Assembly (NCBI RefSeq): GCF_050320075.1
Contig: NZ_CP190018.1
Length of the DNA stretch: 64,000 nucleotides
Source: Escherichia coli
GTDB lineage: Bacteria; Pseudomonadota; Gammaproteobacteria; Enterobacterales; Enterobacteriaceae
Direction: 5' to 3' (one strand)
Of this stretch, positions 27,001-30,000 are shown piece after piece. The number at the start of each line of letters is the position of its first letter. Position 1 is the stretch's first letter. Position numbers: made by a program.

Positions 27001-30000
27001 ACATGCTTTTTTTTATTTGTTAAAGTACATACGCTTTGATGTATACCCCCGTTATCAGCGGGAAACAGAGTGGCGATTAAACAACGGCGTTGCTCTGTTT
27101 CTGATACAGCAACGACCACTGCGTCCGGTTGTGTTGCAAGGCGCACGAACTCCGTGAAAACCGCGTCGGGAGTGATCCCCGGAGAAAAGTGAGATAACCT
27201 CAGGGCTGGTAACCCGTGACGGCGCTGAATTTTCAGCGCCGTTTTTTATTGGTGTTTTCTGCTTGACTTTATTTATGGCTGTTTTAAAAATGAGCATGCT
27301 AAATAGCTGCTTTGCAGCCAACCAATCTCCCGGTGGTCTGAGAGGGAGGCTTACGCGACCACACTGTCATCTTCGGATGACCAGCCAATGTTCCAGCAGT
27401 CTGAGAGGAGCGCCTTCGGGTGACTGCCAGCCAATGTTTCAGCGATCTGAGAGAAACGCCTTCGGGTGATTGCAATATCCTCGTAGCCTGAAAGGGGATG
27501 CCTTTATGGCGGTACATCCGTTTAGCCTCTGGGAACGGATATCACCACTGGTGATTGAGGTACGTTTAACTGCACAGACAGCCGGAAATTCAGCTGATTC
27601 CGGCATCCCCGACGGGAACTATCACTCCCGTCAGGGCTGGTGATGTTCTCCGTCATATCTTTTTTTACTCCATGGAGAAATCATCATGTCTGCAACTAAC
27701 TCTACTTCTGCAAAAACTGAATACTTCAACCTGACCATGAAAGGTCTTGGGTATCTCAGCAATGTTCGTCAGGTTAACCATCAGAACGGTTCGTTCCTCA
27801 GCTGCGTGATTAACGCACTGAGTGGACCAACGGACAATCCGTCCTATACGCGTTTTGATGTCACGGTTGCCGGTAAAGAGGCGACCACCCTGATCTCCCG
27901 CTGCCAGAAAGCAGTGGATGAGGACCGCAAGGTACTGCTTGGTTTTACGTTAAGCAACCTTGCCACCGACATTTTCACCCTGAACAAGGGGGAGCATGCC
28001 GGTGAGCAACGCGTCAGCCTGAAAGCCCGCCTGATCAAGGTGGACTGGATAAAAATAGGCCAGGAGCAGGTCTATAAGGCTGAAAAAGCGGAGTCCCAGC
28101 CACCGAGCCATGGCACCACAAAACGTGAATACGCAGAAGACTCCTTCTGATCGCGTATTTTTCTCACTGCCTCCCTGATAAAGAAAACAGACCACCATCA
28201 GGGAGGTCTGTTTTCTTATTGTTTTTACTGAACTTTAAGGAAACAAATTATGACTTCTACAAACGGTATTCTCGCAGCTGCGGCAGGTTATACATTACCT
28301 CTGGAAATACTCAAAAGTGGGCGCGGATATTATATTGGCACTCAGTGTTCTGAAGGACCGGTATCCCGTGAATCAGAAGAGTATTTCAAAAAATATGAGC
28401 AGGCTGAGCGGACGCTGAAAAATGGCACCTGGACACAACGTCATGCCTGGTAATGAGGAGGTGCTATGGCTTCACGCGGCGTAAACAAAGTTATCCTGAT
28501 AGGACATCTGGGGCAGGATCCGGATATCCGGTATTTCCCCAATGGCGGTGGCGCTGTGGCGAATCTGTCACTGGCGACCAGCGACACCTGGCGGGATAAA
28601 CAGAGCGGTGAAATGAAGGAAGTTACTGAATGGCACCGCGTTGTTCTCTATGGAAAACTGGCTGAAGTTGCCGGCGAGTACCTGCATAAGGGGTCGCAGG
28701 TGTATATAGAAGGCCAGCTTAAAACCCGTAAATGGTTTGACCAGCAGAATGGTGTGGACCGTTATTCAACTGAGGTTGTTGTGGGCGTGAATGGTGTCAT
28801 GCAGATGCTGGGTTCATCGCGTCAGCAGGGCGCTTCCGGTAATGGTGCTTCAGCACTGGCACAAGGGGGCCAGGGACATCCGCCGAAGACGACCGGACAG
28901 ACTGGTCGTGCCACCCGGACGACGTCAACGGGTAATGGTGCTCCACCAATGGACTTTGACGATGATATCCCCTTTATGGGGCTCGGGTATGGCATGGAAC
29001 GACGAATTATTCATGCCATGTAATATTAACCACGGGGCGTTACGCCCCACTTTTTTATCCGGAGGTTCCGTGAGTGAAAAAGTTAACAAAATCACTATGA
29101 TTCATGACGGGGCGTTCAAGAAGACGCTTGAAGATCCCGCCGCAGTAAGGGACTTTCTTGAACAGGTCTTGACACACGATCAGATATCCCGCTGTAATCT
29201 TGATACAATAGAAGTTGAAAAGAATTCGTTCGTGACGGAAAGTTTGCGTCAGCATGCCTGTGATGTTTTGATCAGCATGAAGACAAACGACGGCAGGGAC
29301 GGATACATTTATACCTTAATCGAGCACCAGAGTTCGCCGGATAAATTCATCCCGCTGCGTATGATGCGATATATCCTGGCTGTAATGGAGCAACATGTTG
29401 AAAAGCATAAGTGTGCACCTGTGGTGATCCCCGTGTTGTTTTATCATGGTGCAATGCGGCCATATCCGTATCCGCTGAACTGGGTGGATTGTCTGGATGA
29501 CCCGGAGTACGGACGGGAGATTTATGGCGAGTCAAAGTCATTCAGTCTGGTGGATGTCAGTACGCTTGATGATGATGAAATTGAGCAGTATCGCCGGATG
29601 GCGGCGCTGATGTACACCATGAAGTCCGGAACTCAGGGTGATTTGATTGAGCTGATTGGTAAATCGATCACACTGACGGATAAGTATGGCAGTAGCATTC
29701 ACCTGAATACGGTGCTTACTTATCTGATGGAACTTTACCAGATGGATGTTGCTGAACTTTTTGAAGCAATATCCACACACTATCCCAGCCATAAGGGGGT
29801 GATTATGACGATAGCGGAACAACTGGAAGAGAAAGGTCGGGTTGAAGGTCTGGAGAAAGGCCTTGAGAAAGGCCTTGAGAAAGGCCGTGCTGAAGGCCGT
29901 GCTGAAGAGCGTCAAAAAGCGCTTGCAGAAACTTATGCATCTGTCCGTCGCATGAGCGATATGGGGATGTCAACGGAAGTTATTAAGCAGGCACTTCATC

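Follow-up and report, generated by a model that had tools for sequence, protein, structure and literature searches.

In a 64,000-nucleotide stretch of Escherichia coli DNA (contig NZ_CP190018.1; hereafter the window, meaning the whole stretch analysed), a hairpin-rich element occurs three times on the + strand, and we found that all three copies are the catalogued STAXI RNA motif (Rfam RF01728), an element that is real, conserved and already known, and thus not new. The window is an SPI-7/ICEclc-type (MPF_G) integrative conjugative element (ICE) of E. coli. We propose, at a probability of roughly 45%, that the STAXI array is the cis-acting 5′ domain of a composite leader of establishment operons and that it controls their translation, perhaps also their stability.

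Of the RNA genes found so far in MPF_G conjugative elements, about 80% are STAXI or radC RNA (PMC5587801), and elements of this group disseminate islands for virulence and resistance, SPI-7 and SGI-4 among them. Since its description in 2010, STAXI has remained an orphan motif, and the window reveals no new class of element. What we add is an extended architecture, a fixed promoter, a platform sequestering the Shine-Dalgarno (SD) sequence that is common to STAXI and radC leaders, a predicted fold for the DUF3577 protein that resembles single-stranded-DNA-binding protein (SSB), and the capture of the module by small plasmids. These observations sharpen the old question of STAXI function without answering it.

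The three-copy element is STAXI RNA

We scanned the whole window against Rfam 15, in which STAXI has a gathering threshold of 40.5 bits, and all three copies score above it, on the + strand only (Table 1). The initial annotation of this DNA, made from the sequence alone, had been unable to assign the element to a known family and had named an Rfam scan of the copies as a check; that scan returns a known family for every copy. Permissive scans around the three copies (E ≤ 1) gave no further family and no match on the − strand. The copies also agree with the definition of STAXI in that they are tandem pseudoknots with UUCG loops (cUUCGg tops the inner hairpin in 28/31 distinct units), the host belongs to the Enterobacterales, and topB, ssb, ardA and the gene of an Integrase_1 recombinase lie nearby. 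STAXI was described in 2010 by Weinberg et al. as a pseudoknot repeated two or three times, with ssb, topoisomerase, antirestriction and XerC/D-type integrase genes as neighbours; its function was left open, and a role as single-stranded DNA (ssDNA) was considered, RNA being preferred because of the UUCG loops (PMC2864571).

The Rfam model describes only the middle 153 nt, and the copies reach beyond both its ends. In copy A, the model is preceded by a 5′ hairpin and an extra unit (27306-27362) and followed by a terminal pseudoknot unit (27516-27561). A repeat search delimits a three-copy family with starts at 27304, 55849 and 58646, and aligns 27318-27566 of copy A with 58660-58908 of copy C at 99% identity over 249 nt. 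In a three-way alignment, homology extends from the 5′ hairpin through ...GAGGTACGTT, the sequences 5′ of that hairpin being unrelated among A, B and C, and copy B differs in the absence of precisely the third unit (46 nt) and in 4 nucleotides inserted within the terminal hairpin. The initial annotation had reported three + strand copies, about 99% identity between A and C and a missing 46-nt unit in B, and on each of these points the repeat search and the alignment agree with it.

Copies A and C are 99% identical while their promoters, 5′ hairpins and downstream leaders differ, and this combination suggests recent gene conversion confined to the transcribed array. The type B and type C copies of Salmonella SGI-4 (two examined) are far more diverged.

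Architecture and covariation of the array

Each copy consists of a 5′ hairpin followed by tandem H-type pseudoknot units, five in A and C and four in B. Within a unit the order is S1, S2, CUGAGAG, S1′, a cUUCGg hairpin and S2′. In the terminal unit of copy A, the helices are S1 AUCCGUUU/GAACGGAU, the inner hairpin AUCACCA-C-UGGUGAU and S2 AGCCUC/GAGGU; the second hairpin of copy B has a UCAG loop. This anatomy revises the earlier description in several places: where three internal units had been counted there are five in A and C and four in B, the “ccguuu stem” and the “terminal palindrome”, taken for separate hairpins, are the pseudoknot stem and the inner hairpin of the terminal (fifth) unit, and the supposed UUUG loop of the 5′ hairpin in copy A is a UUU triloop. 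The UUCG hairpins listed there are indeed present, namely gucgc-UUCG-gcgac in B and C, gucauc-UUCG-gaugac in A and C, and cgcc-UUCG-ggug once per canonical unit.

We built a covariance model from a single 46-nt unit and ran it over fifteen Enterobacterales loci and four small plasmids in addition to the window. After removal of duplicates, 31 distinct units were aligned, from Escherichia, Salmonella, Klebsiella, Enterobacter, Cedecea, Erwinia, Edwardsiella, Serratia, Pantoea, Rahnella and Acerihabitans. For the scored structure (S1, 5 bp; S2, 6 bp; inner hairpin, 3 bp), 96.5% of the cells are pairing, against 31-56% in controls in which the 3′ partners were slid by 1-3 columns. Double-sided changes are found at all 5 pseudoknot pairs and all 6 S2 pairs, that is at 11/11 variable pairs, and none of 500 shuffles came up to the score observed. 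The compensatory changes that had been noticed between the copies, and the selection on secondary structure that they suggested, therefore hold more strongly across species.

The inner hairpin GCC-UUCG-GGU is nearly invariant, its G.U pair being kept in 25/31 units, and over all pairs we counted 38 G.U against 7 A.C. Taken together, these two results point to the sense strand as the one on which STAXI folds. The stems covary freely, and the invariant loop residues are CCAAU, CUGAGAG and GCC-UUCG-GGU with its conserved G.U. Furthermore, the 5′ hairpin covaries across loci (GUCGC/GCGAC, GUUGUC/GACAAC, GUUGC/GCAAC), as do all three helices of the terminal unit between genera; the latter is a direct reading of the sequences and not a formal count, because the MAFFT alignment is out of register between subgroups.

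No credible open reading frame (ORF) had been seen in the element, and this holds. Mini-ORFs of 11 codons (MFQQSERSAFG*) in units 2 and 3 of E. coli are not conserved across genera, and we rejected them as coding because other genera have early in-frame stops. GGA loops of the CsrA type were likewise discarded as candidate motifs, being present in some E. coli hairpins only and not conserved across genera.

A promoter at a constant distance from the array

A consensus scan finds a sigma-70-like promoter before each copy. The one proposed earlier before copy A is sound, except that its −35 box starts at 27263 and not at 27262; copies B and C have such a promoter as well. In copy A the −10 box ends 27 nt 5′ of unit 1. 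We compared 23 distinct upstream regions. In 22 of them, 27-30 nt separate the end of the best sigma-70 match from unit 1, the exception being a fragment flanked by insertion sequences (IS) on an IncK plasmid, and 15/23 score ≥ 9/12 in the 24-34-nt offset window, compared with 0.7% of random control windows drawn from the same loci. The promoter sequences are not homologous among copies, and their distance to the element is constant. Because the promoters vary in sequence while this distance is fixed, the array would start about 7 nt after the transcription start, as judged from the position of the −10 box, and each copy would form the first ~220-265 nt of a transcript from its own promoter.

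Directly 3′ of the arrays, no intrinsic terminator was found in the regions around the three copies. In Pectobacterium, strand-specific RNA-seq has shown STAXI RNA between topB and ECA0527 (PMC4710047), and both STAXI and EFASI RNA have been detected by reverse-transcription quantitative PCR in vesicles of Shiga toxin-producing E. coli (STEC), among the most abundant RNAs tested (PMC12370729).

Conserved hairpins between the array and the start codon

Next to the array, two of the three contexts have conserved leader hairpins, H1-H3. Type A leaders, with H1-H3 after the array, are found in the window and in Cedecea, Serratia, Edwardsiella and Pantoea; type C leaders, also with hairpins after the array, in the window and in Erwinia, Salmonella SGI-4, Klebsiella and Edwardsiella. 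Across both types, H1 is variable and covaries, H2 is conserved in sequence (CCCGACGGGAA..UUCCCGUCRGGG), and H3 pairs GUGUUUCUCC with GGAGAAACAUC just before the AUG, burying the SD sequence. In copy A, the SD sequence sequestered by H3 lies at 27675-27679, directly before the ATG at 27686. The SD-sequestering hairpin lies 75-130 nt downstream of the array, and the gene context, examined as it would be for a riboswitch, is not metabolic. The segment made of H2 and the SD-sequestering hairpin is absent from Rfam; it is found after STAXI in Enterobacterales and after radC RNA in elements of Pseudomonas, Stutzerimonas and Ralstonia.

After copy C, a long ORF (58812-59441) and the annotated start of the first gene overlap the RNA, which is likely an annotation artefact. 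Because the conserved SD-sequestering hairpin directly precedes it, ATG 59040 is probably the true start of the first gene in the ardA operon, in place of the annotated start or that of the ORF list. A 45-codon RefSeq coding sequence at 27506-27643, which overlaps the 3′ part of STAXI copy A together with H1 and H2, is probably spurious.

radC RNA in the same genomic slot

DUF3577 genes outside Enterobacterales were located by tblastn in a plasmid collection. In pKLC102, a Stutzerimonas megaplasmid and a Ralstonia replicon, radC RNA (RF01754, typed by Rfam as cis-regulatory) lies 80-105 nt upstream of the DUF3577 gene. A 6-kb locus holds two or three radC copies in pKLC102 (Pseudomonas) and Stutzerimonas and one in Ralstonia, each preceding a different small gene, and most copies in the Pseudomonas and Stutzerimonas loci come after a TTGACA promoter. 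They are followed by an H2-like hairpin and an SD-sequestering H3, as after STAXI (for example at 2899-3004 of locus L133 and 2915-3004 of locus L137).

Like STAXI, radC occupies this slot in MPF_G elements in several copies per element, and its core has the order of the STAXI unit: S1, S2, UGAAAG, S1′, a uucg hairpin and S2′. Its S2 covaries among the three pKLC102 copies (GAUCU/AGAUC, GGAUC/GAUCC, GGGUU/AACCC). Unlike STAXI, it is a single unit and not an array, and its primary sequence is different. The Rfam scan of the 64-kb window contains no radC match, so that the copies are not radC RNA, and the STAXI unit model detected nothing in the radC loci. We accordingly claim no homology between the two RNAs, only positional and architectural equivalence. 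As an analogy, this parallel is our strongest argument for STAXI acting in cis within the leader.

Genes downstream of the copies

Many E. coli genomes have chromosomal islands that match the window at 100% identity, and a match is present in 614/5426 complete genomes. The RefSeq annotation of one matching genome lists ParA, a dnaB-PI helicase, a ParB-like protein, DUF2857, STY4528 and topB and, after topB, STY4534, ssb, pilL, traD and TIGR037xx conjugation genes, all on the + strand. Copy A sits between the topB terminator and STY4534, at the head of an operon (operon A) that is short and self-contained, bounded by the terminators at 27218-27243 and 29034-29048, the latter strong.

STY4534 is a DUF3577 protein named “ICE replication protein”. 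A single-sequence AlphaFold model was unusable (predicted local distance difference test, pLDDT, 39.9), and we used instead a model from a 26-sequence alignment, with a mean pLDDT of 78.9. In a Foldseek search of the PDB with this model, every top match is an SSB, Rim1 or PriB OB fold (best E 3e-4; target-normalised template-modelling score 0.5-0.6), with no PDB match at the sequence level. STY4534 is accordingly predicted to have an SSB-like OB fold. In ICEclc, the orf95213-inrR-ssb operon is a key bistable node of transfer competence (PMC3395598), and gene order together with the DUF3577 family suggests that operon A is its counterpart.

Copy B has EFASI RNA 478 nt downstream, about 120-160 nt upstream of a tyrosine recombinase gene, and the order STAXI, EFASI, integrase recurs in at least 9 other Enterobacterales loci. 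Downstream of copy C comes a series of small genes, ardA (60399-60908) among them. A search for the element in a phage collection gave no match, and a scan of genome contigs with a degenerate pattern was too loose and gave mainly chance matches, 9/120 among the matches listed being true Enterobacterales STAXI loci.

STAXI and EFASI in small plasmids

By similarity search, seven plasmids of 3.1-7.0 kb from Escherichia, Pantoea and Rahnella, representing at least three replicon types, match the element. Four of the seven were scanned with Rfam, and all carry the promoter and STAXI, then EFASI 150-480 nt downstream. Their replicons comprise one rolling-circle Rep_1, one unnamed cluster and two ColE1-like replicons with RNAI; the cer-like XerCD sites of the ColE1-like plasmids fall outside the STAXI-EFASI module. 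The STAXI units of the small plasmids score highly and add compensatory changes. In the 3140-bp rolling-circle plasmid NZ_CP059920.1, about 930 bp (30%) is given to the module, and the 3.1-kb plasmid shares its host, strain 64.1, with the ICE. Because small plasmids have captured it repeatedly, the module is evidently of use even with no protein gene linked to it.

Other features of the window

The coordinates of all features are collected in Table 1. Two further repeats were observed. At 23211-24130, just past the STY4528 gene, there are 25.6 tandem copies of a 36-bp unit (CGGTGTTGCCAGTGGCAACAGTGGTTAAAAAATGTG; 91% matches), each with GTTGCCA-G-TGGCAAC as an internal palindrome. Translated in frame, the array gives a 12-aa repeat (VLPVATVVKKCA), and the annotation makes it a hypothetical protein; alternatively, it could consist of iterons, form a centromere array or be the place where the ParB-like protein loads, for which the bisS sites of ICEclc offer a comparison (PMC12409273). 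At 29725-30515, the 3′ end of an Rpn-family nuclease gene is duplicated, terminator included, in two direct repeats of ~380-430 bp with 95% and 85% identity; the terminator copies lie at 30105-30128 and 30487-30510.

Table 1. Positions in the window of the STAXI copies, their parts and the neighbouring features.
Feature	Position	Strand	Remarks
Intrinsic terminator after topB	27218-27243	+	11-bp G+C-rich stem and T-run; ends the upstream transcription unit
Promoter, copy A	27263-27291	+	TTGACT-17-AAAAAT; consensus scan
STAXI copy A	27306-27566	+	
Rfam match, copy A	27365-27518	+	139.2 bits, E 4.7e-30
5′ hairpin, copy A	27306-27318	+	GCUGC-UUU-GCAGC
Unit 1, copy A	27319-27362	+	Unit covariance model 52.8 bits; S1 CUCCC/GGGAG; outside the Rfam model
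Second hairpin, copy A	27366-27381	+	
Unit 2, copy A	27382-27427	+	Unit model 67.9 bits
Unit 3, copy A	27428-27473	+	Unit model 64.5 bits
Variant unit, copy A	27474-27515	+	CCUGAAAG unit
Terminal pseudoknot unit, copy A	27516-27561	+	Repeat ends at 27566
H1, copy A leader	27581-27604	+	Variable, covarying
H2, copy A leader	27607-27636	+	CCCCGACGGGAA..UCCCGUCAGGG
H3, copy A leader	27640-27685	+	GAUGUUCUCC pairs with GGAGAAAUCAUC; minimum free energy (MFE) folds and alignment fold
Operon A	27686-29048	+	STY4534/DUF3577 27686-28150; 67-aa ORF 28250-28453; ssb 28466-29023; terminator 29034-29048
Promoter, copy B	55805-55834	+	TTGACG-18-TATTCT; consensus scan
STAXI copy B	55849-56070	+	5′ hairpin 55850-55863; unit 1 55864-55907; hairpin; unit 2 55927-55972; variant unit; terminal unit
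Rfam match, copy B	55910-56069	+	89.1 bits, E 2e-17
EFASI RNA (RF02957)	56547-56669	+	70.7 bits; sole other Rfam match in the window scan
Tyrosine recombinase	56827-57744	+	Pfam Integrase_1 and Phage_int_SAM_2; downstream of copy B and EFASI
Promoter, copy C	58603-58632	+	TTGAAG-18-TACAAT; consensus scan
STAXI copy C	58646-58909	+	5′ hairpin 58647-58660; units at 58661, 58724 and 58770; variant unit; terminal unit
Rfam match, copy C	58707-58860	+	138.1 bits, E 9e-30
Copy C leader	58982-59042	+	H2-like 58982-59008; H3 59010-59038 (GGAACGUCCG..CGGAGGUUCC); ATG 59040

Possible functions of the array

The leaders in our proposal would serve establishment operons, for SSB-like protein and ssb, for the recombinase and for antirestriction. 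In contexts A (DUF3577, small ORF, ssb) and C (ardA operon), the array is followed by H2 and then by H3, which would lock the SD and start-codon region of the first gene, and because of this lock we propose that translation of the first gene is off by default. The invariant loop residues beside freely covarying stems suggest a binding surface repeated four to five times. As a hypothesis, the units would be a multivalent docking platform for one putative trans-acting factor, most likely a protein, and the docked factor would set the stability and translation of the three establishment operons jointly. In context B, the same 5′ domain would head a transcript with EFASI RNA and the tyrosine recombinase gene. 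Of the three hypotheses in the initial annotation, a riboregulatory leader is the one that fits best, since copies A and C precede a conserved SD-sequestering hairpin. Its phage C4-type antisense regulator finds no counterpart, with no c4 family match in the window nor at E ≤ 1 around the copies, and a mobile recombination site or IS end finds no support in copies that are all direct, without inverted partner or adjacent transposase, and that begin at the likely transcription start.

A bolder version, which we think improbable, makes STAXI in Enterobacterales and radC RNA in other Proteobacteria interchangeable sensor domains of a single conserved composite leader, built of promoter, pseudoknot domain, H2 and SD-sequestering H3, with the tandem pseudoknots as operators for an OB-fold ssDNA-binding protein that the element itself encodes (DUF3577/STY4534 or the SSB of the ICE). 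While transferred or replicating ssDNA occupied the protein, the leaders would be free; once the ssDNA was gone, binding of the protein to every leader would silence the operons jointly. The leader would thus gate translation of the activation and establishment operons of MPF_G elements, and the small plasmids with STAXI-EFASI would be decoys tapping the circuit. Putative autoregulation by SSB-like proteins in the style of T4 gene 32 fits the gene content, and we consider it similarly improbable.

Several points weigh against a leader that acts in cis. Rfam types STAXI as a small RNA (sRNA) gene, and copy B lies ~720 nt from the recombinase gene, with EFASI between them. The Pectobacterium RNA-seq reported segments of ~228 nt (PMC4710047), and the AU-rich stretch just past the terminal unit could be a processing site that frees a stable RNA of ~250 nt. 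The MFE z-scores of copy A are unremarkable (−0.26 on the + strand, −1.23 on the − strand); they are uninformative because nested folding ignores pseudoknots, and it is consequently covariation, not thermodynamics, that carries the case for structure. What speaks most against a purely cis model is the small-plasmid capture: the four scanned plasmids have no recombinase gene, no linked downstream protein gene and no H2/H3, and because they carry STAXI-EFASI alone they leave room for a role in trans.

Under such a role, which we consider unlikely on balance, STAXI with or without EFASI would be a trans-acting RNA cut from transcript 5′ ends, titrating a host or ICE protein as CsrB/RsmZ do or otherwise acting at a distance, and the downstream genes would merely share its promoter. 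The sRNA type in Rfam, the tandem near-modular units with invariant loop residues and the abundance of STAXI and EFASI among the RNAs tested in STEC vesicles (PMC12370729) are consistent with this, as is the persistence of promoter-STAXI-EFASI without a linked gene on plasmids of three replicon types and three genera, one of them co-resident with the ICE in strain 64.1. However, the array lacks an intrinsic terminator at its 3′ side, in types A and C it leads directly into the conserved H1-H3 and the start codon, and no GGA-in-loop (CsrA-type) motif is kept across genera, nor is a partner known. Improbable, too, is a passive 5′ cap against 5′-end-dependent RNase E attack and Rho loading, with neither ligand nor switching. 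The array does open with a hairpin ~7 nt from the likely transcription start, and it heads unrelated cargoes, two mRNAs and the EFASI transcript. In known cases (ompA-type stabilisers), however, one 5′ hairpin suffices for protection, and the invariant loops and the inner hairpin with its G.U beside covarying stems suggest specific recognition or a precise fold.

That STAXI works as ssDNA, serving for priming or as a single-strand origin once conjugative transfer or rolling-circle replication has taken place, is an alternative raised by Weinberg et al. (PMC2864571), and we judge it very improbable. In its favour are the neighbouring DNA-processing genes and the presence of the element in the 3.1-kb rolling-circle plasmid (Rep_1-type) and in ColE1-like plasmids, where lagging-strand priming sites are needed. 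Yet the C(UUCG)G tetraloop, stabilising in RNA but not in DNA (PMC2864571), occurs four times per copy, G.U pairs outnumber A.C pairs on the sense strand (38 against 7), the covariance-model matches lie on one strand only, a duplex promoter stands at a fixed distance in 22/23 arrays, and the RNA has been detected; moreover, the element is antisense to rep in the rolling-circle plasmid and probably not on the displaced strand. Equally hard to credit is a role in which the RNA, expressed on host entry, would act as a decoy for defence systems, be it a ToxI-like pseudo-antitoxin or some other anti-defence RNA: a promoter-proximal tandem array of 44-47-nt pseudoknot units is formally like a type III antitoxin array, and the association with antirestriction genes, for which Cury et al. 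suggested an anti-restriction link (PMC5587801), points the same way, but the units are diverged and covarying where near-identity would be expected, no terminator and toxin gene lie downstream, and no cognate nuclease is known. The slimmest chance of all we give to a put-like processive antitermination RNA that modifies the polymerase at operon heads. The position of STAXI is apt, since within one mobile element it opens three transcription units close to their promoters, but the small plasmids carry the module with nothing long to transcribe, and we disfavour antitermination because operon A, with only three genes, is short and strongly terminated at 29034-29048.

For the cis-acting leader, we thus retain a narrower question than before: STAXI lies at the transcription start, as far as the promoters tell, a hairpin hiding the ribosome-binding site follows in two of the three contexts, and both the slot and the hairpins are common to radC. 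If true, the leader model would add a post-transcriptional control layer to ICE establishment.

Comparison with known systems

Three known systems resemble STAXI in part. Frpo elements, the single-strand promoters of plasmid leading regions, are long imperfect hairpins of the template strand that rebuild −35 and −10 boxes. STAXI precedes the same kind of early genes (ssb, ardA), but it is not an Frpo: it folds on the sense strand, with G.U pairs, as short hairpins and pseudoknots downstream of an ordinary duplex promoter. ToxI antitoxins are near-identical tandem pseudoknot-forming repeats that come after a promoter and are followed by a terminator and the gene of a toxin endoribonuclease. STAXI is also a tandem array of short pseudoknot-forming units after a promoter; its units, however, are diverged and followed by no terminator but by DUF3577, recombinase or hypothetical genes, so that it does not belong with ToxI. 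The translational operator of T4 gene 32 has a 5′ pseudoknot at which autoregulation by gp32, the SSB of the phage, is nucleated, and an unstructured A/U-rich tract follows. STAXI differs in having four to five tandem units followed by structured hairpins and in heading recombinase and antirestriction units as well; like that operator, it places a pseudoknot close to the promoter in the leader of an ssDNA-binding-protein operon, here that of ssb and of STY4534 with its predicted SSB-like fold.

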